Shown here in pieces: positions 1 through 13,376 of a DNA stretch of 19,461 nt. The notes under the pieces were generated by a model. That model was not told the origin of the DNA, ran no database searches, and was given only the letters and a program-made list of their open reading frames with translations. Both the position numbers and the translations under genes were made by a program. How positions within the stretch are numbered: the stretch's first letter is position 1; the number at the start of each line of letters is the position of its first letter. Origin of the DNA: Candidatus Firestoneibacteriota bacterium (GTDB lineage: Bacteria > Oederibacteriota > D2-FULL-39-29 > JBDRBU01); the NCBI GenBank assembly GCA_043822305.1, contig JBDRBU010000068.1, forward strand, positions 1 to 19,461, in the 5' to 3' direction.

Positions 1-120
1 AAGATTTCATCTTATAGATTGAAGAAAGTCGAAGATCTATTAAACGATCGTCCAAGAGAAGTGCTTGATTGGCATACACCAAAAGAAGTATTTACTGAAA
101 CCGTTGCACTAGGGACTTGA
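1..120 (+). CDS. IS30-family transposase, C-terminal fragment (truncated by window start)
   Basis: Frame +1 translates KISSYRLKKVEDLLNDRPREVLDWHTPKEVFTETVALGT*. LNxRPR..L.(W/F).TP.E.F...VAL is the characteristic IS30 transposase C-terminus. Not in the ORF track. Confidence 0.85.
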   Translation, partial: KISSYRLKKVEDLLNDRPREVLDWHTPKEVFTETVALGT

Positions 121-127
121 ATGTAAG
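1..127 (+). mobile_element. Right end of an IS30-family insertion sequence; terminal inverted repeat at about 101-127
   Basis: GTTGCACTAGGGACTTGAATGTAAG overlaps the transposase stop codon, as in IS30-family right IRs (GTTGC..N..TTGAAT...). The exact last base is uncertain. Confidence 0.7.
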
Positions 128-166
128 CTGTCCCTATTTAAAATTTAAAAAATAAAAATTTTCTCC

Positions 167-4362: not shown

Positions 4363-5040
4363 CTATGGGGACACAATACCTATTTTACTGGGTTTGCGAC
4401 CCACCTTTTGAGGACAAAACACGCGACCAAGAGTTACTTCCAATCTGGCTATAAATGATGCATCTCCCAAAGGACGACCTGTCCGCGAATGACAACGAAT
4501 TTGCTCTAACTCCTCTTTTTTCATTCCTCCTAGTAAGAATTCTTTCCAATCCCCAACCATCTCAAGCAATACTTGAACTCTTGCTAATCGGTCATCCTTT
4601 CCATTTATATGTGCATACGCACTCGACCAAGCATACTCCCATGGCTCTGATACCATCTTAGCTCGTAATGGATTTAACTCAATATACCGCACTGCAGATA
4701 TCAAATATCTTTCGTCCATCGGATACGAAGCAAACCTCCCCTGCCACAGATACCCTCGCCACCCTTCACGGAAATTTATCATCCGTGTATAGCGACGGTG
4801 TGCTTCACCTATTCCACGAGATAGACTTTCTTCTGTTTCCGGTACCGCAATCAGATGTACATGATTAGGCATGAGACAATACGCCCATATTTGTACTTTA
4901 CACCTATCACACCATTCCCTCAAGAGAAGAATATATCTTTCGTAATCACTTTCCTGAAAAAATACATCCTGACGACGGTTACCTCGCTGAGTTATATGAT
5001 GTGGTAACCCTGGTACTACTACACGTGCTATCCGAGCCAT
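4363..5040 (-). CDS. REP-associated tyrosine transposase (RAYT/TnpA-REP, Y1 HUH, IS200-like fold)
   Basis: MARIAR...PHHITQRGNRRQDVF, AYCLMPNHVHL (HUH), G.LWQGRF, RYIELNP (catalytic Tyr), Y.WSS. Visibly more GC-rich than its neighbours. Confidence 0.92.
   Translation of the reverse strand: MARIARVVVPGLPHHITQRGNRRQDVFFQESDYERYILLLREWCDRCKVQIWAYCLMPNHVHLIAVPETEESLSRGIGEAHRRYTRMINFREGWRGYLWQGRFASYPMDERYLISAVRYIELNPLRAKMVSEPWEYAWSSAYAHINGKDDRLARVQVLLEMVGDWKEFLLGGMKKEELEQIRCHSRTGRPLGDASFIARLEVTLGRVFCPQKVGRKPSKIGIVSP
4365..4386. repeat. GGGACACA-core REP-like repeat, copy at the RAYT 3' end
   Basis: ATGGGGACACAATACCTATTTT. GGGACACAATAC (4368-4379) is the exact inverse of 5097-5108. Encodes the RAYT C-terminus KIGIVSP. 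Confidence 0.75.
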
Positions 5041-5079: not shown

Positions 5080-7071
5080 TTAATAATTAGTAATTAGTAT
5101 TGTGTCCCTAAAATAATGTTGTAATATCTCTTTATAACTATAACCTTTTTTTGCCAGGCCAACTGATCCGGATTGGCATAAGCCAACACCGTGACCCCAA
5201 CCACAACCATATATAAAGTTTTTTTCTATTTTAAAAAAATTACTTCTTAATCCAGGCAAAATTCCTCTTATTTTATCTCCAACAATCTTCTTGCCATCTA
5301 CTATAACTTCTTTAACATATCCATTACTATCTCTTTTTGATATTTGTACATTATTTATATCTTCTATTATTTTAAACCATCTAAAATTACTATCGTTACT
5401 GCAAAATGCTACTGGTTCAAGTTTAATCCATTTTTCCAATTTTTCCGGAGTTAATGGCCAATTATATTCTAAATTTTCAGATTCTGGAATATAATCTGCA
5501 ATACTTTTTAAATTAGTATTAACATTTCCACCCCAGGCATCTTCAACATTACATGTTATTCCCCCACAACAGGAGAAGAAAAAAGTATTTATTACTTTAT
5601 CATTACAACTTAAAACTTCACCCCTTGTGGCATCTACTGCAAAAGTAGTATTTTTATGTTCTGAAAAAACACCATTATAGGCCAGACAATGAACATCACT
5701 ACACACCTGGAAATTCTCATGTCTCTTTTTTAACATTTTATTTAATACATAACTTCTGGCCACTACTGCTTGGGCTTTTAAACTTTCTATCTCGGCTAAG
5801 GCACTAATTTCAGAAGGTACAACACTATACAAATATTCTTCTAGATTAATATTATTTATTACAGTCAAACCATCTTCTAATAGTATTTCAAGGGAGCCTC
5901 TAAAACTTCTATCCAAATTTTTTACCCAAAAATATCCCTTATTTAAGGTAACATCATATATGGTAAAAGTTGCTTCCCTATTATCACCCTTTAAAATTAT
6001 ATTTAAGCCCTTAGACAAAACAAGTTCTAATATTATTTTATCATTTTTATCTTTAATTGTAAAATCTTTTTTACTCTTTTCAAATTTTATTTCTTCATCT
6101 CGTGGAATCTCTTTTATTATTTCATTATTCTTTAATATGTAAAATTTACCTGCACATTTTAATCTTAAGATATTTACATTGCTAACTAATCCTACTTTTA
6201 CAACAGGTATCCCTTCCGGTTTTAAAACGCAAGAAACTAAAGGCGATTTTGTAACTTTTCTAACTCCCTCCTTTTTTTCTTCTTCTTTTTTTACATATTC
6301 AGCAATTTTGCTGGCGGTATCTTTTAACTTTTTCTGCAATTCTTTATTTTTTGGTTCAATTAATGAAACCTTCTTATAATACTCATAAGATTCCTGTAAT
6401 AACTTTTTTCTTTCATAAAGATCAGCTAAAAGAAGATATGCATTGTAAAGACTTGAATCTGCCTTTACTGCTTTTTGATAATTATTTACAGATTTGTCTA
6501 ACTCCCCAAGTTTCTCATAAACCTGTCCTAACTTAAAATACGCTTGAGCAAATCTTGGTTTTATATTTAAAGTTTCATTAAATTCAGAGATCGCTTCAAT
6601 AAATCTTTCTTCCTTCAACAAAGAGCATCCTAATCCAAAATGCGTATATAAAAGAATAATATTTGATTCAACAAAGTTCTTTTTTTTTAAAACTTCATTG
6701 AATAAGATTATTGCTTTACTACTACGACCAACATAATAATAACAAAAAGCTAAATTATTCAATCTAAACAAATCTTCTTTTATCTTTAAAGAACTCTCAT
6801 ACGCAACAATAGCTTCGTTTAATCTTCCCGTATCTTTATAAAGAGTTGCAAGATTTGCATAAACTTCATCTGAAGTATAAATGGAAAGCGACTCTATATA
6901 TTTTTCTTCAGCAGACTTAAAATCACCTTCATAGTAATATTTATTACCTTCATCAAATAAGGTTTTAAACTTTTCTTCCGGCTTTATTTCTTTTCTTATA
7001 ACCTCTTTTGGGGCACAAGAGAAAAATAAAACAATAATAAAAACAGGGACACATCCCATTTTTAGGTTCAT
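5080..7071 (-). CDS. SpoIID/LytB-domain lipoprotein with N-terminal TPR repeats (putative peptidoglycan lytic transglycosylase)
   Basis: Lipobox-like LFFSC and TPR-like helices at about aa 35-245. SpoIID motifs LEEYLYSVVPSE, LKAQAVVARSY, C..VHC..Y.G, AVDATRG, FFSCCGG, GWGHGVGLCQ and EILQHYF. Start overlaps the tonB stop (ATGA). Confidence 0.9.
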   Translation of the reverse strand: MNLKMGCVPVFIIVLFFSCAPKEVIRKEIKPEEKFKTLFDEGNKYYYEGDFKSAEEKYIESLSIYTSDEVYANLATLYKDTGRLNEAIVAYESSLKIKEDLFRLNNLAFCYYYVGRSSKAIILFNEVLKKKNFVESNIILLYTHFGLGCSLLKEERFIEAISEFNETLNIKPRFAQAYFKLGQVYEKLGELDKSVNNYQKAVKADSSLYNAYLLLADLYERKKLLQESYEYYKKVSLIEPKNKELQKKLKDTASKIAEYVKKEEEKKEGVRKVTKSPLVSCVLKPEGIPVVKVGLVSNVNILRLKCAGKFYILKNNEIIKEIPRDEEIKFEKSKKDFTIKDKNDKIILELVLSKGLNIILKGDNREATFTIYDVTLNKGYFWVKNLDRSFRGSLEILLEDGLTVINNINLEEYLYSVVPSEISALAEIESLKAQAVVARSYVLNKMLKKRHENFQVCSDVHCLAYNGVFSEHKNTTFAVDATRGEVLSCNDKVINTFFFSCCGGITCNVEDAWGGNVNTNLKSIADYIPESENLEYNWPLTPEKLEKWIKLEPVAFCSNDSNFRWFKIIEDINNVQISKRDSNGYVKEVIVDGKKIVGDKIRGILPGLRSNFFKIEKNFIYGCGWGHGVGLCQSGSVGLAKKGYSYKEILQHYFRDTILITNY
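5091..5114. repeat. GGGACACA-core REP-like repeat, inverted copy upstream of RAYT, inside the 3' end of the SpoIID/LytB gene
   Basis: TAATTAGTATTGTGTCCCTAAAAT, containing a 12-bp perfect inverted repeat of 4368-4379. Confidence 0.75.
7039..7063. repeat. GGGACACA-core palindromic repeat in the signal-peptide coding region
   Basis: AAAAACAGGGACACATCCCATTTTT, with stem GGGA/TCCC and A5/T5 arms. 17 bp (7046-7062) are identical to 13260-13276. Confidence 0.8.
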
Positions 7072-7796
7072 TTCTTTAAATTAAACTTAAATGTTATTTT
7101 TCCTTCCTGGTCTATTTGTTTGGCTGACATAGGCAAAGAATCAAATTTCCATCTTCTCATACAATCTATAACAAGTTGGTCTAATTCTTTAAATCCACAT
7201 GTCCTAATCACAAATATGTCTTTAACATCGCCTTTAGGGTCTACCGTGATTTGGACACAAATTTCACCTTCTATGCCTTTTCTTCTTGCCCATTCTGGAT
7301 ATTCTGGTGCATCGTGATAAAGTATTCCACGGGAAGCTATTGGTCCTGTAACATTATAATTGCCATCGGGGCTCCCTGGTTTTTCGTTATCTTCGCCAAA
7401 CCCTCCACCTAATATAGGACCCTCTACTAATCTTCCAGAAGTTTTTAAAGAAGGCTCATCAACTCCTATTGGTGTAGTTTTTCTTATTTTTAAAATATCA
7501 TCTTCAGTTTTTGGAATTATCCTTACAGGTAGAACAACAACTTTATTTTCTTTAATATTCTTTTCTCCCTTTTTGGGAGAAATTACTCCTGTTTTTCCAC
7601 CTTCGTTACTAACCATTTCACCTTTTTGTCCAAGTCCTTGGCCATATGGCATCTCTCCTATGAAAGTAATTTCTGTAAGATACACTGTCTTCCCTATAAA
7701 CTGTGCCACATATAAACAAGAGAAGAGCAGTAATCCAATAAAATGGATTATTATTGAGATGAATATTGTATATTTTAAATCCCCATTTTTTTGCAT
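7068..7796 (-). CDS. tonB: TonB-family energy transducer
   Basis: N-terminal TM with SxxxH (SIIIH), Gly/Lys-rich linker, and TonB_C domain PEYPEWARRKGIEG.I.V.I.VD..G.V....V....G...LD......RWKF. Confidence 0.85.
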   Translation of the reverse strand: MQKNGDLKYTIFISIIIHFIGLLLFSCLYVAQFIGKTVYLTEITFIGEMPYGQGLGQKGEMVSNEGGKTGVISPKKGEKNIKENKVVVLPVRIIPKTEDDILKIRKTTPIGVDEPSLKTSGRLVEGPILGGGFGEDNEKPGSPDGNYNVTGPIASRGILYHDAPEYPEWARRKGIEGEICVQITVDPKGDVKDIFVIRTCGFKELDQLVIDCMRRWKFDSLPMSAKQIDQEGKITFKFNLKK

Positions 7797-7797
7797 A

Positions 7798-8208
7798 TCA
7801 TTTTTGTTCTATCTTTTCTGCCGCAATGGCTAGTTTCAGTGCCCCTGATTTTTTTGCAATATCAAGCACTTTAACTACATAACCATGTAATACTCCTTTG
7901 TCAGCATTTAATATAACGAGTTTATCCTTTTCATGTTTCAACAAGTCTTCTAAGTATGGCTGTAAACTACTAATATTAACTTCTTTGTCATTTACATATA
8001 TTTTATTATCTACTGTCATGGAAATTGCTATATTTCTTTGTGGAGTGGTATCGGCTGTAGTAGCCGTGGGTAATTTAACCTTAATCCCTCCTTGCAAGAT
8101 CAATGGAGTTGTGACCATAAATATTATAAGTAAAACCAAAGCAACATCTGTTAAGGGAGTAACATTTATATCGGATATTAACTTGTCTTCAGGTTTATAT
8201 CTTCTCAT
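7798..8208 (-). CDS. exbD: ExbD/TolR biopolymer transport protein
   Basis: INVTPLTDVALVLLIIFMV (conserved TM Asp), V.LP.A, ADK.V.HG.VV.VLD..K.SG. Confidence 0.92.
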   Translation of the reverse strand: MRRYKPEDKLISDINVTPLTDVALVLLIIFMVTTPLILQGGIKVKLPTATTADTTPQRNIAISMTVDNKIYVNDKEVNISSLQPYLEDLLKHEKDKLVILNADKGVLHGYVVKVLDIAKKSGALKLAIAAEKIEQK

Positions 8209-8214
8209 AGCCCC

Positions 8215-8862
8215 TCACTTTTTGATTAACTCTATAAGCTCAGAAGCACTATCTTCAAAAAGAACTAATAACTTTTTTATGCTTCTTAAAAAATAATTAT
8301 AAAAAACAACAGCTGTAATGGCCACAAATAATCCAGCAGCCGTATTTACTAATGCTTCAGCGATTCCGCTGGCCACGACTGAAGGACCTGCTGCGGATTC
8401 AATAGCTAATGACTGGAAAGCATGCATTATCCCAAGTACTGTCCCAAACAATCCAACATATAAAGAGATATTCCCTATAGTTCCCAGAATCCCTAAATAT
8501 TTTTCAAGCCCTATCATCTCTTTATCAATTGTTCTCATGGCTAATTCTGATAAATCATTTTTATCTTTACTATGCGAAAAAAGTATAATTTTAAAAACAT
8601 TTGTAAGTGGGCAGGTTACTTTAAAGAATAGCCAGTTAACCGAAAATCTTTCACAGTAACTTATAGCATCAGAAATTTTCCCTGACAAAACCAAATTCCT
8701 GACTTTGTTTTTTACTTCTTCTAATAATTTTAAACGAACCCCATAAAATGTCTTCAGCCTTTCCAAAAACACGGCTACAGAAAGCACTGAAAATATAATC
8801 AGCACTATTATCGTATAACCGCCTTTCTCAAGTATCCTTAAAAAACTTAAATCAGTAAACAT
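8215..8862 (-). CDS. exbB: MotA/TolQ/ExbB proton channel protein
   Basis: LGTIG...GLFGTVLGIM.AF, GIAEAL..TA.GL.VAI, FYNYF. Strong AAGGAGG SD. Confidence 0.92.
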   Translation of the reverse strand: MFTDLSFLRILEKGGYTIIVLIIFSVLSVAVFLERLKTFYGVRLKLLEEVKNKVRNLVLSGKISDAISYCERFSVNWLFFKVTCPLTNVFKIILFSHSKDKNDLSELAMRTIDKEMIGLEKYLGILGTIGNISLYVGLFGTVLGIMHAFQSLAIESAAGPSVVASGIAEALVNTAAGLFVAITAVVFYNYFLRSIKKLLVLFEDSASELIELIKK

Positions 8863-8876
8863 ATTTTACCTCCTTT

Positions 8877-10421
8877 TTACATAAATTTAATATTTAAACC
8901 CAGCAAAATAGATGCTTTTGGTAATATATAACCAGATATGTATTCATATTCCTGATTTAATAAATTCTCTCCTTTAACAAATACAGTTAGCCAGTTTGAA
9001 AAATTCTTACTTATCTTTGTTGACAGCAATAAAGATGGACTTAAACTATTAGAAAGATTTTGTTGATAATACCTTTCGTTAACATAATTTAATTCTATAT
9101 TAAATTCCCAATCTGTTATATCATAGTCACAACCTAATTTTAAAGTATGAGTTGGAAGATAGGTAATAAACTTATGACTATCATCTTTATTTACTCCCTT
9201 AACAAAACGATAATCAAATGTTTGAGAAAACCCGCTAAATATCTTCCATTCTTCTTTAAAATTAAATCCTATGAAAAAAACCTTGGGTATATTAACTGGT
9301 ATCCCCATCCCATTTGAACTCTCTAAAGAGATAAAATCATCTATATCTTTTTTGTAAATCTCAAACCTGATTGGTATTTCTTTGTTTAACTTATGCTCAA
9401 CACCGGTTAAGATTGAAAACCAGGTATTTTCTGGCTGTAAATTTTTATTAACATTTATAATACTATTTTCGTATAACTCTTTAAAAACCGGGCAGGTTAA
9501 TCTTGGTGTCCACTCAACATATAAATTCGTGAAATTATCAAGTTCATATACCATCTTCCCCAGAAGATTAAATCTATCTTTATCATATCTTATACCCAGA
9601 GTAAAATTAAACTGGTCAATTTTAAATTTATCTTCAAGTAAAGTAAAAAAAATTGTTTCATATATGCTATCTTTTCTTATTTTTAAATTTAACTTCGATA
9701 AATGTTTTTCATTGCTAATCATAATCTCAAAGTTAGCCCCAATATCTGCTACATAACTATCATCTTTATAATTAAATCCATTTAAATCTGAATGGTTATA
9801 TGAAAGACCTGATGATATACTGTAATTATCATTTAAAGCAGAGGAACCTCTTAAACTTATCCCATAAAAATATTTTTGATAATCAATGGAAGTAAGAGCA
9901 GCTGGCTGATAAAGGATTTCATTATCATAATTCAGCGAAAAACCTACTTCGGCTATCTTTTCAAATGTGTAGTTCGCCTCACTAGAAATATAAAAATTAT
10001 TATACCCACTATAAGAACTAAAATAATCTTTCTTGTCTTTTATAGTACTAATTAAATAATTAAAACTATCCATTTTTTGACCAAAAATTAATTTTCCATA
10101 AAAATTAGAATAAGTACCATAATAAGTAGTTATTTCTCCGAAGTTGTTTTTACCTGTAACTTTTTCCTCTAAACTTGGTGTTTTCTTCTCAGAAGATAAA
10201 TATGGTCCTTTTATAAATTCTAATTCCATCAATGGAGTTTCTTTTGGCGGAATTGGATAATTTTCCGGAAGGAGTTCTTTCTTTTCAACACCTACTTTAA
10301 TCTCGCTCTCACCAGTAATAATAACATCAGGTAAAACAAAAACAGGTTCTTTTTCCTTTTTATATTCTTGTGAATATACAATTTGAGTAAGCACTAAAAA
10401 TATTATTACTAAAAATCTCAT
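8877..10421 (-). CDS. Outer-membrane beta-barrel protein, TonB-dependent-receptor-like
   Basis: Signal peptide, TonB-box-like LPDVIITG, alternating aromatic beta-strands, and a TBDR-like C-terminus VFVKGENLLNQEY...G.......LGLNIKF. Start overlaps the TPR gene stop (ATGA). Confidence 0.7.
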   Translation of the reverse strand: MRFLVIIFLVLTQIVYSQEYKKEKEPVFVLPDVIITGESEIKVGVEKKELLPENYPIPPKETPLMELEFIKGPYLSSEKKTPSLEEKVTGKNNFGEITTYYGTYSNFYGKLIFGQKMDSFNYLISTIKDKKDYFSSYSGYNNFYISSEANYTFEKIAEVGFSLNYDNEILYQPAALTSIDYQKYFYGISLRGSSALNDNYSISSGLSYNHSDLNGFNYKDDSYVADIGANFEIMISNEKHLSKLNLKIRKDSIYETIFFTLLEDKFKIDQFNFTLGIRYDKDRFNLLGKMVYELDNFTNLYVEWTPRLTCPVFKELYENSIINVNKNLQPENTWFSILTGVEHKLNKEIPIRFEIYKKDIDDFISLESSNGMGIPVNIPKVFFIGFNFKEEWKIFSGFSQTFDYRFVKGVNKDDSHKFITYLPTHTLKLGCDYDITDWEFNIELNYVNERYYQQNLSNSLSPSLLLSTKISKNFSNWLTVFVKGENLLNQEYEYISGYILPKASILLGLNIKFM

Positions 10422-13294
10422 TTATCCTCCATGGCTTTTAATCTTTTCTTGGCAGATTCTTTCCAATCATTATTAGGGCTTTCTTTTATAATTTCTTTGT
10501 AAATTGCTTTTGCTTCTTTAAATTTTCCTAATCTTTCGTAACATTCAGCTGTCCTTGCTTTCGTTGTCATCTTCCATATATCAGTTGCATCAGGTAGACC
10601 AAATACCTTTGTATATTCTTGTATTGCTTTTTCAAAATCTCCTGAATTATAATAACAGCTTCCTATCCAGTACTGAGATTCTACCGCTTTATCAGTAAAA
10701 TTATCCACAACAAATCTATAAGATTTTATTGCTAACTCAAAATTTTTTATTTCCTCGTAAATAGTTCCAGACTCTAAACTAGCTTCTTTTGCTAAATTAC
10801 TTCTGGGAAAGTTAGTAATTACATATTGAAATTGTTTTATGGCCTCATCGTATTTTTTTATTTTTTTTAAAGAAAGTCCAGCGTTGTAAGAGCTTGAAAT
10901 CACATATTCACTTACCGGATATTTATTAATTACTTCATTATATTCACTGGCAGCATCTTCATATCTTTCTAATAAAAAATAAATATTAGCAATTTTAAAT
11001 TGTGCTTTTGGTGCCAAATTTGACTTTTGAAATTTATCTATTAAAATTCTAAAGCTTTCTACTGCTCTTCCATATTCTTTAAGATTTAAAAAAGATTCCC
11101 CTTTGTTAAAAAAAGCATTTGGGATTAAATTCGAATTAGGAAAATCATTTATAAACTTATCATATTCATAACTAGCTTCTTTAAAATTTTTATTATTATA
11201 ATAATAATCCGCTATTTTAAATTGAACCTCTGTAGAGAATTCTTCTTTTGGAAACTTCTTTAAAAACTTCTTTGATATCTCTATTGATTCATTATTTCTT
11301 CCTAGTCTTGAATAACTCCAGGAAAGTCCATATAAAGCATCTCTCTCATACTTGGTATCACTAAATGAATTAATAACCTCCTGATAATGTTCTATCGCTT
11401 TCTCATATTCTTTAAGATTATAATAACTATCTCCTATTTTAAGTATTGAATCTGCTATTAGATTACTATTAGGAAAACTACTTTTAAGTTTTTTAAAGTT
11501 TTCAATAGCTTTTAAGAAATCTTCTTGTCTAAAATAAGAGATTCCTATCCAGTAAGCACTCTCAGGAGTATTTAGTTGTGACCAAAAACTTATAGCCTTG
11601 TTGAAATCGTTCAAATTATAATAACACCAACCTGTCTGATATATTGATTTTTCCCCAGCCTCAGTTGTACTAAATTTTTCTATTACTTTTTTATAAGATT
11701 TTATTGCAGAATCATAATCCTTAAGATTATAAAAACAATTACCTGTCATATAGTTTATTTCAGAAAAATATTCTTCTTTTTTATCCAAATCTATAACTTT
11801 TTTAAATTCTAAAAGTGCAGTTGTAAACTTTTTTTCTTGAAAGAAACAGTACGCAATTCCTATTTGTGAAACGACAACAACGGATGAAGCACTAAAGTTT
11901 GTTAAAACTTTTTCATAAGAATCAAATGCTTTTGCATAATCCTTCATGGCAAAATAAACATCTCCTAATCTATACTGTGTTTCTGCGGCCCACTCGCTGT
12001 TCGGGTATTTTTCAAGTAATTTTTTAAAATTTTCTCCGGCATATGGCAAATGTTTTAATTTATAGTCACACCAACCTACCCAGTATAAAGCATCATCTGC
12101 AAATTCACTGGTAGGAAATTCATTATAAATTTTAATATATACACTTTTAGCATCCTCAAACCGGCCAAGACTATAGTAACTATTACCAGACAAATATAAG
12201 GAATAAATTTTTAAAAGTGCAGGAGCATCTTCTTTAATAACATTATTTAATTTTTTTATTGAATCCCAGAATTTTTTTTGCTTAAAATAACACCACCCTA
12301 AAGCATATTCTACCCTTAACCCCAATTCCTTTGAAATTTCGGAATTTTGACTGATCTCTTTAAGAATATTGCCTGCCGAAGAATAGTTAGATATATTGAT
12401 ATGCGCTAGACCCAGCCAATATTTAACTTCGTTTCTCAAAATACTTTCAGGATAAGCCTTGAGAAAGATATTAAACGCATCTAAGGCTGACTTAGAATCT
12501 CCTAATTTATAAAAACATTCTCCTATCCTGTAAGAAGCTGCATCACTGTATTTATGAGTTGGTGCTTTTTTTAAAAATTCCTCAAAAGAAATAATTGCCT
12601 CACTGTATTTACCTGCCAGATATAATGATTCTGACTTCCAAAATATCGCACTAATTAAAAGAGTACTTTTGGGTGTTTTTAAAATTAAATCGCTAAAACT
12701 TTTAGCAGAAGATTCAAATTTATTTAGTTTAAAATATGACCAACCTAAAGAATAGCATGAATAGTCCAACAATTTATAGTTTGGAAAACTTGTGATTATA
12801 TTTTCATAAACATTACTTGCCTGATCATAATTACCCAGATTAAAATAAGATTCAGAGACCCAAAATAGTGCATCAGCATACAAATAACTTTCAAGCGATA
12901 ATAATTCAAACCATTTTATGGCATTCTCATAATTTTTTAATCTATAGTAACATTCTCCTATCCTGTATAAAACAGTATCTTTGTATTCTAAAGAAGTGTA
13001 TCTATTTATAATATTCTCATATTCTTTAATTGCTTTCTCGTAATCTCCTTGCTTGTATAAACATTCTACGATCATGAAACTAGAATCTACAGCTTCTTTA
13101 CTTTCAGGATATGTTAAAATCACTTTTTTAAATTGTTCTAGAGCAAATTGATAATTTTTATCCTTATAAAGATTGTCTCCAAATTTATATAAATCAGAAG
13201 AAGTATCGTAAGCAAATAAAAAAACCGGCAAGAAAAGAAGAAATAGTAGGGTCGAAATGGGGACACATCCCATTTTCCAATTCACTTTTTTCAC
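10418..13294 (-). CDS. Large secreted tetratricopeptide-repeat protein (YbgF/CpoB- or BamD-like repeats, roughly two dozen units)
   Basis: Recurrent ~37-aa units A.Y.IG.CYY....Y..A...F......YP.S; signal peptide ending FLFA. The GTG at 13294 (MKKVNWK...) follows GAGG and is preferred over 13309; the ATG at 13273 is also possible. Confidence 0.9.
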   Translation of the reverse strand: MKKVNWKMGCVPISTLLFLLFLPVFLFAYDTSSDLYKFGDNLYKDKNYQFALEQFKKVILTYPESKEAVDSSFMIVECLYKQGDYEKAIKEYENIINRYTSLEYKDTVLYRIGECYYRLKNYENAIKWFELLSLESYLYADALFWVSESYFNLGNYDQASNVYENIITSFPNYKLLDYSCYSLGWSYFKLNKFESSAKSFSDLILKTPKSTLLISAIFWKSESLYLAGKYSEAIISFEEFLKKAPTHKYSDAASYRIGECFYKLGDSKSALDAFNIFLKAYPESILRNEVKYWLGLAHINISNYSSAGNILKEISQNSEISKELGLRVEYALGWCYFKQKKFWDSIKKLNNVIKEDAPALLKIYSLYLSGNSYYSLGRFEDAKSVYIKIYNEFPTSEFADDALYWVGWCDYKLKHLPYAGENFKKLLEKYPNSEWAAETQYRLGDVYFAMKDYAKAFDSYEKVLTNFSASSVVVVSQIGIAYCFFQEKKFTTALLEFKKVIDLDKKEEYFSEINYMTGNCFYNLKDYDSAIKSYKKVIEKFSTTEAGEKSIYQTGWCYYNLNDFNKAISFWSQLNTPESAYWIGISYFRQEDFLKAIENFKKLKSSFPNSNLIADSILKIGDSYYNLKEYEKAIEHYQEVINSFSDTKYERDALYGLSWSYSRLGRNNESIEISKKFLKKFPKEEFSTEVQFKIADYYYNNKNFKEASYEYDKFINDFPNSNLIPNAFFNKGESFLNLKEYGRAVESFRILIDKFQKSNLAPKAQFKIANIYFLLERYEDAASEYNEVINKYPVSEYVISSSYNAGLSLKKIKKYDEAIKQFQYVITNFPRSNLAKEASLESGTIYEEIKNFELAIKSYRFVVDNFTDKAVESQYWIGSCYYNSGDFEKAIQEYTKVFGLPDATDIWKMTTKARTAECYERLGKFKEAKAIYKEIIKESPNNDWKESAKKRLKAMEDK
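13254..13277. repeat. GGGACACA-core palindromic repeat in the signal-peptide coding region
   Basis: GAAATGGGGACACATCCCATTTTC forms a near-perfect hairpin and shares 17 identical bp with 7046-7062. Confidence 0.8.
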
Positions 13295-13376
13295 CAAAAT
13301 AATCCTCACTTCTCGACTAAGACGAGTACATTAAACAGCATCTAAAGATGCTTAACTACATGCTTAACTATAGTCT

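Follow-up and report, generated by a model that had tools for sequence, protein, structure and literature searches.

How does one and the same short DNA sequence come to be read, in the same frame, near the start of two different envelope proteins? The question is raised by a 19,461-nt stretch of DNA from a Candidatus Firestoneibacteriota bacterium (contig JBDRBU010000068.1 of assembly GCA_043822305.1; this whole stretch is called the window below), in which the 17-mer GGGACACATCCCATTTT occurs identically at positions 7046-7062 and 13260-13276 of the plus strand. One occurrence lies within a gene for a lipoprotein with TPR and SpoIID/LytB domains, the other within a gene for a large TPR protein; all genes in the window are on the minus strand, where the 17-mer reads AAAATGGGATGTGTCCC. 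Most probably, each copy is a solitary terminal inverted repeat (TIR) of about 22 nt (AAAATGGGATGTGTCCCTATTT) from a TIRtron, a cassette of about 750 bp that encodes a RAYT-like Y1/HUH transposase (TIRYT).

The match, first reported in the initial annotation of the window, is exact and well beyond chance: 0.01 occurrences are expected, none of 200 shuffled sequences contained two, and similarity around the copies extends over 37 nt at 78%. Both are in one orientation and in one frame, AAA ATG GGA TGT GTC CC(T/C), or K-M-G-C-V-P, which confirms that the repeat enters coding sequence. In both proteins KMGCVP comes after the Lys-rich beginning of a putative signal peptide; the hydrophobic core (VFIIVLFFSC in the SpoIID protein and ISTLLFLLFLPVFLFA in the TPR protein; scores of 2.48 and 3.07 in a crude hydrophobicity window) follows directly, and there is no in-frame ATG or GTG between motif and core in either gene. 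The term signal peptide refers here to a basic n-region, a hydrophobic h-region and a lipobox Cys read off the sequence; the Cys of LFFSC is kept in 14 of 14 aligned SpoIID orthologues.

The two copies belong to a large repeat superfamily. The genome (125 contigs, 2.15 Mb, 31.6% GC, 96.8% complete) has 10 exact 17-mers and 11 exact 12-mers of the unit, and the superfamily as a whole, with consensus AAAAA-TGG-NNNC-TGTCCCTATTT, is represented by 75 exact copies of its invariant core TGTCCCTATT and by 112 sequences with TGTCCC[CT][AG]TT. A 27-nt position weight matrix (PWM) gives 146 matches above 18 bits, as compared to 3 in the reversed-sequence control. Subtypes differ over the 8 nt ahead of the core, and the subtype of our two copies, ATGGGATG, makes up 11 of the matrix matches. 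Within one mismatch, the AAAATGGGATGTGTCCCTATTT-type unit is found in none of 40 related genomes, ranging from the same order to the same phylum.

This superfamily is tied to transposases, as had been proposed. Five Y1 paralogues are encoded in the genome, and on each of three contigs (C100, C51 and C81) the Y1 gene stands between two inverted end-repeats of a subtype proper to it. In the C100 and C51 cassettes the upstream repeat ends about 35 nt before the ATG; the downstream end-repeat is found at the stop codon or at most about 60 nt beyond it. Each type of end is also found as solo copies: the C100 end has 10 exact ones, the C51 end 7, and the C81a end 12-19 if one mismatch is allowed. 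The transposases are 208-225 aa long, with a Pfam Y1_Tnp match at 1.1e-14, and the residues H60/H62 (NHVHL) and R118-Y119-x-E-x-N-P (RY[IV]E.NP) are invariant across four paralogues. Beyond the Y1 domain there is a conserved extension of about 85 aa, in which Pfam detects no helix-turn-helix family at E-values up to 1; TnpA-REP subclass 2.1 (see below) is marked by a C-terminal extension of helix-turn-helix-like type. The NCBI RAYT equivalog model NF047646 scores these enzymes at 67.6, 71.2, 77.0 and 74.4 bits, below its cut-off of 80, and the NCBIfam IS200 model at 27-33 bits against a cut-off of 55.

The link between the exact unit of our copies and a Y1 enzyme comes from other phyla. A scan of the species-representative genome collection for the 19-mer AATGGGATGTGTCCCTATT gives at least 121 stretches that contain it, where simple arithmetic with uniform base composition would predict about 4, and these represent at least 76 assemblies (counted by accession prefix) in about 14 phylum-level groups. 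Labels among the matches listed include Omnitrophota, Atribacterota, Nitrospirota/Thermodesulfovibrionales, Planctomycetota (with anammox genera), Deltaproteobacteria/Thermodesulfobacteriota, Elusimicrobia, Cloacimonadota, Aminicenantes, Clostridia, Actinomycetota, Caldisericum, Gemmatimonadota, Patescibacteria, and one Methanoperedens bin. Conservation in the alignment of these loci stops at the unit of about 22 nt. Among the matches listed, 25 of the 121 loci contain both orientations, 24 of them as facing pairs 6-258 nt apart, and in three (L142, L143 and L145) the exact unit stands on both sides of a Y1 gene of 221-223 aa in a 749-bp cassette, such that the upstream unit is followed by TTGACA and the downstream unit abuts the stop codon. 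The three enzymes are 54-83% identical to one another and 36-42% identical to the four compared from our genome. The same exact 19-nt end is thus shared by dozens of assemblies of unrelated phyla, and therefore this TIRtron lineage travels widely and with very constrained ends. None of the five Y1 paralogues in our genome is flanked by the AAAATGGGATGTGTCCCTATTT-type unit. The best match there to the L145 enzyme is at 44% identity; the cognate enzyme is therefore not in the assembly, which is 96.8% complete and could have missed its gene.

Several of the remote loci may also carry the unit within genes, with the frame open through the flank: a doublet is seen in a HypF-like open reading frame (ORF) of an Omnitrophota bin (L049), and one exact unit is seen in a prepilin-like leader (L126, …KWDVSLFFKKGFTLIELMVV…). 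In a further case (L051) a MATE-like N-terminus starts at the ATG of the unit itself; all three names are read from translations. The exact 19-mers on short contigs of bins labelled Methanoperedens (L035, 2.1 kb) and Patescibacteria (L114, 1.3 kb, with a partial Y1 gene) could represent either real transfer or binning error.

What, then, is the role of the transposase gene of the window itself, which is encoded 2 kb away from the nearer copy? The initial annotation took the two copies for repetitive extragenic palindromes (REPs) made and moved by this RAYT. The genes are near one another, the enzyme has the HUH motif and the catalytic Tyr (RY[IV]E.NP), and an 8-mer, TGTGTCCC, is common to the unit and the cassette ends while missing from most other subtypes; the 8-mer GGGACACA occurs four times in the window (0.16 expected), with two of the occurrences flanking the transposase gene in inverted orientation. 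The flanks of the cassette share with the unit of the two copies only an 8-mer, though, and in an ungapped comparison of our own the unit matches the C100-type end at 11 of 14 positions and the window end at 10 of 14. The window cassette end GTATTGTGTCCC has no solo copy genome-wide (each end gives one exact match, namely itself), and neither end folds (0 and -0.8 kcal/mol). The window enzyme is only 39-40% identical to the enzymes that stand between exact units. It has a 60%-identical relative elsewhere (L140; 3' end GTATGGTGTCCCC) and is of a different lineage. The window gene has a GC content of 43.9%, among the top 5 of 1363 ORFs in a genome with a mean of 31.6%, and is missing from the syntenic locus of a relative (see below); because of these two properties it looks recently arrived, and it is probably a separate newcomer. 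The neighbouring RAYT is therefore a very unlikely source of the two copies, and the link to it is not supported. Upstream of this transposase gene we also observed the arrangement TTGATA-N17-GATAAAAT; because it ends only about 7 nt ahead of the ATG, a leaderless or near-leaderless transcript is suggested.

The empty sites in a relative are informative about how the solo ends came to lie in genes. The closest SpoIID orthologue (P0002, 77% identity) is encoded on a contig, L014, that is syntenic with the window across 15.5 kb and lacks both copies; the only superfamily matches on it are two weak ones within an intergenic stretch, and there is no transposase between its SpoIID and DUF3307 genes. 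A homologue search with the 963-aa TPR protein gave only matches of 18-26% identity and no close orthologue, and the gene of the relative was taken from L014. Upstream of copy 1, L014 has the same ATGA in which tonB and the SpoIID gene overlap; upstream of copy 2, it likewise starts the TPR gene with a TTG behind a ribosome-binding site of the GAGGA type. The start signals being kept upstream of both copies, the elements therefore lie inside the reading frames. With these starts, both would probably be translated, as K-M-G-C-V-P, at the junction of n-region and h-region. The N-terminus of the SpoIID protein is MNLKMGCVPVFIIVLFFSC here and MRKIFFTTILIVFLFFSC in L014, a net gain of one codon (+3 nt); that of the TPR protein is MVKKVNWKMGCVPISTLLF... 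here and MVNILKWIKNKGLTLLF... in L014, a net gain of two codons (+6 nt). The KMGCVP block of about 8 aa had been expected to align as a clean indel, and the orthologue alignment gives instead these gains of only one and two codons. At the motif sites the closest orthologues have MRKIFFTT... and ...KWIKNKG..., and in these comparisons KMGCVP is seen to be lineage-specific, yet not a clean insert of 7-8 codons. Likewise, the 5' end of the window cassette covers the last 10 SpoIID codons with no change of length (RDTILITNY here, PGSEIKKIY in L014).

The same comparison bears on whether selection could have acted on KMGCVP as a peptide, perhaps as a signal for sorting or lipidation, with the DNA identity being secondary. 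The use of one frame in both genes and a Cys near the N-terminus would agree with such a role. On the other side, the nucleotide identity is 17 of 17, synonymous sites included; most of the 8 other exact 17-mers are non-coding or read in other frames; and the orthologues lack KMGCVP, with the conserved lipobox Cys located further downstream. K-M-G-C departs from the lipobox consensus. We rejected this explanation, which is contradicted by the orthologues and has next to no chance of being correct. The initial annotation had itself named an absence of further genomic copies and a conserved KMGCVP as grounds against its own reading of a repeat family, and neither applies: further copies exist, and KMGCVP is not conserved.

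Genome-wide, the placement of the superfamily is strongly patterned. By crude longest-ORF calls (2072 ORFs, 91.8% of the genome), 96 of the 146 matches are intergenic, 29 lie within 30 codons of an ORF start (26 sense, 3 antisense), 15 within 30 codons of an ORF end, and 6 are internal. The class at the 5' ends includes copies in 5' untranslated regions (e.g., argG and radC), because the ATG of the unit extends the called ORFs. Between co-directional genes the two orientations are about equally frequent, 37 sense and 34 antisense. Sense copies mostly end (30 of 37) from 2 nt inside to 18 nt before the called start, the median being 10 nt before it, and 22 of the 34 antisense copies overlap the upstream stop codon, 14 of the 34 supplying it as the TAG in AAA TAG|GGACAG.

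Such positions could suggest that the unit is a host cis-element, i.e., an mRNA hairpin, a weak bidirectional terminator or a tuner of translation that is kept near starts and stops, with our two copies modulating initiation or providing an internal ATG. In addition to the patterned placement of sense copies ahead of starts and antisense copies on stops, the make-up of the unit (A-run, GC stem, T-run) and its exact conservation across phyla speak for this possibility. The fold of the unit speaks against it. The copies had been described as hairpins, and a 4-bp stem (GGGA/TCCC) with an A/T extension is indeed present; it is weak, with a DNA fold of -4.1 to -5.5 kcal/mol (z-scores of -5.1 and -5.8 for copy 1, and of -2.2 and -2.5 for copy 2), and the RNA folds in a context of 56-76 nt are unexceptional (z of -1.47 and +0.05). 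No Rfam family reaches its gathering score anywhere in the window, and neither copy has a called terminator-like site or, ahead of its internal ATG, a GGAGG-like one, so that the suggested tuning of initiation is not borne out. Moreover, the unit occurs in both orientations almost equally often, inside ORFs, and as both ends of cassettes, and the orthologous genes of the relative manage without it. A host cis-element is, on balance, an improbable explanation.

Solo ends within genes are not peculiar to signal peptides. The unit can be read through in any of its three sense frames (KMVSVPI, KWYLSLF and KNGICPYF), and by eye a hydrophobic core or lipobox comes right behind a copy in at least seven further genes, on contigs C29, C34, C39 (two copies), C64, C103, C104 and C118. 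Nevertheless, signal peptides are not enriched at element-bearing N-termini: they are found in 8 of 24 such genes, and 30.4% of 1824 ORFs have one (by a crude hydrophobicity window, which by eye missed about three short lipoprotein signals). For want of convincing enrichment we dropped the notion that they are a preferred target. At the n/h junction of signal peptides the copies are probably tolerated.

In two cases the repeat lies truly within a gene. In MutL, a facing doublet of the subtype of our two copies lies in frame in the linker (G000:C97:9629-9666; L016, about 1830-1867; …IKGHIPFGCVPII…), forms a 12-bp stem with a fold of -13.7 kcal/mol as DNA, and the linker is 11 aa longer than that of a 70% relative. 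In trpC, a perfect C100-type end-repeat (34 bits) is read in frame as KNMVSVPIL (G000:C100:20724-20750; L015/L150), 2.2 kb upstream of the C100 cassette and in the same trp operon. The trpC copy comes without an indel, both relative to three solved structures of indole-3-glycerol-phosphate synthase and relative to all 8 of the order-level relatives that were recovered (the pattern used did not pick up a ninth locus, L153), and in the order-level relatives the DNA matches the unit at 10-15 of 27 positions.

Simple insertion leaves one feature unexplained, namely that coding sites are occupied with hardly any change of length. It is possible, if rather unlikely, that the ends also spread by templated in-place replacement, whereby a selfish motif of 22-27 nt would overwrite similar resident DNA, coding DNA included, and keep its length. 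The observations that would be accounted for in this way are the indel-free trpC, the unchanged length of the last 10 SpoIID codons, the gains of only one and two codons in the signal peptides, and an exact end that is found across about 14 phylum-level groups while the enzymes bracketed by it are 54-83% identical.

Three further loci carry the end-repeats in arrangements of their own. At G000:C26:2863 and C26:6785 we see one composite, made of a purine-rich stretch of about 66 nt (GTGGGGAAAGTG…) and a C51-type end-repeat, which precedes, in frame, the conserved N-terminus of a thymidylate-kinase-like gene in one case and that of a TatD-like gene in the other; there is no ordinary start codon between the repeat and the conserved motif at either C26 locus. 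At G000:C39:36330-36398 (L018), two end-repeats of different subtypes are present in one putative signal peptide (MIHQINKKVRAVPICLLAIIIIMVSVPIYAASF).

To which class of elements should the unit be assigned? TIRtrons consist of RAYT-like genes between terminal inverted repeats, many of which fit GGGGWSAS, as the majority of TIRtron ends do, and their enzymes are named TIRYT; families of TIR repeats belong to TIRtrons, some of which have a dispersed family (Di Nocera et al. 2013, PMC3733652). TIRYT corresponds to TnpA-REP subclass 2.1 (Quentin et al. 2018, PMC6006769). Our unit fits the TIRtron/TIRYT class, and not the classical GTAG REP. The likeness lies in a RAYT-like Y1 gene (about 220 aa) that has a terminal inverted repeat on either side, at distances that are short and fixed, in ends scattered as singles and facing dimers, and in several cassettes with different ends per genome; GGGGWSAS is fitted by the 3' end of the window cassette (GGGGACAC) and by the C51 and C81a ends. 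What sets our case apart from the published TIRtrons is the number of solo ends (about 146 in a 2.1-Mb genome, many of them on start or stop codons or in frame in genes), a subtype, that of the two copies, without a cognate gene in the assembly, and one exact end common to at least 76 assemblies of many phyla.

REPtrons, in which a GTAG/CGTC REP is associated with a RAYT, are similar in that short dispersed units are tied to HUH/Y1 enzymes and found at ORF ends, where they often supply TAG stops. REP copies inside ORFs, at N- and C-termini and notably in DNA repair genes, and termini supplying TAG stops, have been reported (PMC3733652); in our genome the repair genes are MutL and MutS. That REP-like repeats may lie in ORFs and at N-termini and may supply stop codons is thus known already from what that article describes. 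Unlike REPs, our two copies have no GTAG or CGTC tag (they read ACAGGGACAC and ATGGGGACAC on the plus strand), the tag survey finds ATAG in most superfamily members and GTAG in a few, and the enzymes score under the RAYT cut-off. The classical REP is an imperfect palindrome of 20-40 nt folding into a stable stem-loop, as against a core stem of 4 bp here; only facing doublets give a long stem. The label of a non-canonical RAYT-associated family, used in the initial annotation, is apt in that the family is not of the GTAG type, and is better replaced by the name of the TIRtron/TIRYT class.

Other known systems are more distant. Rickettsia palindromic elements (RPE), reported by Ogata and coworkers in 2000 (as cited in PMC3733652 and PMC2759123), are said to be inserted in frame in protein genes, and they resemble our unit in being selfish palindromic repeats tolerated in frame in functional proteins, N-termini included. 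RPEs are longer and add whole peptide segments, while here a unit of 22 nt adds, on balance, one or two codons; RPEs have no known transposase. A 168-bp repeat similar to miniature inverted-repeat transposable elements lies in a poorly characterized ORF, whereas in our case a transposon end of 22 nt occupies two envelope genes that are conserved and can be compared with an orthologue. The Y1 transposases (TnpA) of the IS200/IS605 elements have the same catalytic domain (Pfam Y1_Tnp), and single-strand chemistry is to be expected of both; in IS200/IS605 elements, subterminal hairpins take the place of terminal inverted repeats. A search for the exact motif in the text of the literature, which leaves aside figures and the supplements of PMC3733652, brought up only unrelated mammalian studies, and nothing pertinent was found on RAYT repeats read in frame in signal peptides.

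Under the preferred reading of the copies as solo TIRtron ends, they were probably deposited by a TIRYT that works on single-stranded DNA, or else remained after the loss of a cassette. They would be translated, harmlessly, within the signal peptide, a part that is probably hardly constrained and cleaved off, and they may persist because the three sense frames are open, the A-run and T-run flanks encode Lys and Phe/Ile/Leu, and the segment is weakly constrained. The copies themselves would be functionless. The enzyme behind them would be gone from the assembly, or unassembled, and the neighbouring transposase would be separate.

Several observations weigh against this account. Neither site is a clean insertion of +22 nt, the net changes being +3 and +6 nt, and simple insertion does not explain the indel-free trpC copy. 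The unit of the two copies (AGGGACAC) agrees with GGGGWSAS at 7 of 8 positions, and it is contrary to the TIRtron norm that the cognate TIRYT gene was not found in the same genome as the unit (five paralogues in a 96.8%-complete assembly); no enzyme close to the cognate one (44% identity at best) is there to account for the 10 exact copies. Translation of the elements is deduced from the conserved start signals only. Finally, the placement counts depend on the crude ORF calls, and the strong positional pattern at starts and stops could also reflect selection for function.

The first description of the locus was thus right on the kind of element and wrong on its partner enzyme and on the clean indel. 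The locus offers a controlled case of a selfish repeat joining real proteins, since the syntenic relative provides both empty sites and conserved start signals. For annotators, it means that starts, stops and N-terminal residues in such genomes may come from transposon ends. If confirmed on more pairs of occupied and empty sites, copies placed in coding sequence with little or no change of length would bear on the unsolved question of how REPs and TIRs are copied.

Table 1. Features of the window that are discussed in the text
Feature	Position	Strand	Remarks
Solo end-repeat, copy 1 (AAAAATGGGATGTGTCCCTGTT)	7042..7063	-	Codons 4-10 (K-M-G-C-V-P-V) of the TPR-SpoIID lipoprotein gene; PWM 28.3 bits; missing at the orthologous L014 site
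Solo end-repeat, copy 2 (AAAATGGGATGTGTCCCCATT)	13256..13276	-	Codons 8-14 (K-M-G-C-V-P-I) of the 959-aa TPR gene if numbered from its conserved TTG; PWM 25.8 bits; missing at the orthologous L014 site
Third solo copy of the superfamily, other subtype (…GCTGTCCCTATTTAA)	115..141	+	Upstream of the ribonucleotide reductase promoter; PWM 23.1 bits
Y1 (HUH) tyrosine transposase, RAYT-like/TIRYT type, 225 aa	4363..5040	-	GC 43.9%; missing from the syntenic locus of the relative
3' end-repeat of the window cassette (GGGGACACAATACC)	4367..4380	+	Overlaps the last transposase codons; fits GGGGWSAS
5' end-repeat of the window cassette (GTATTGTGTCCC)	5097..5108	+	Inverted partner of 4368-4379; inside the last 10 SpoIID codons
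TPR + SpoIID/LytB lipoprotein gene, 663 aa	5080..7071	-	Pfam; ATG overlaps the tonB stop (ATGA), likewise in the relative
Large TPR (TolA-binding/YbgF-like) gene	10418..13297	-	Pfam; likely start TTG 13297-13295 behind GTGAGGA, both kept in the relative

The two host genes (Table 1) delimit an operon in the order TPR / 514-aa ORF / ExbB / ExbD / TonB / TPR-SpoIID, with the large TPR gene coming first and the last 10 codons of the SpoIID gene overlapping the 5' end-repeat of the transposase cassette. The longest ORF of the large TPR gene is 10418-13309, or 963 aa; translation from the TTG gives 959 aa. In the relative, the spacer before the TPR gene is 420 nt long (L014:1516-1935), compared to 92 nt in the window; repeats that end in TTTCCC[CT]ATTTTT are found in it and may belong to a related end family peculiar to the relative. 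Positions 1-118 of the window hold the 3' end of an ORF (…LNDRPREVLDWHTPKEVFTETVALGT*), which resembles the C-terminus of IS30-family transposases; the synteny with L014 breaks there, and L014 has at this place the apparent 3' end of a tRNA gene.

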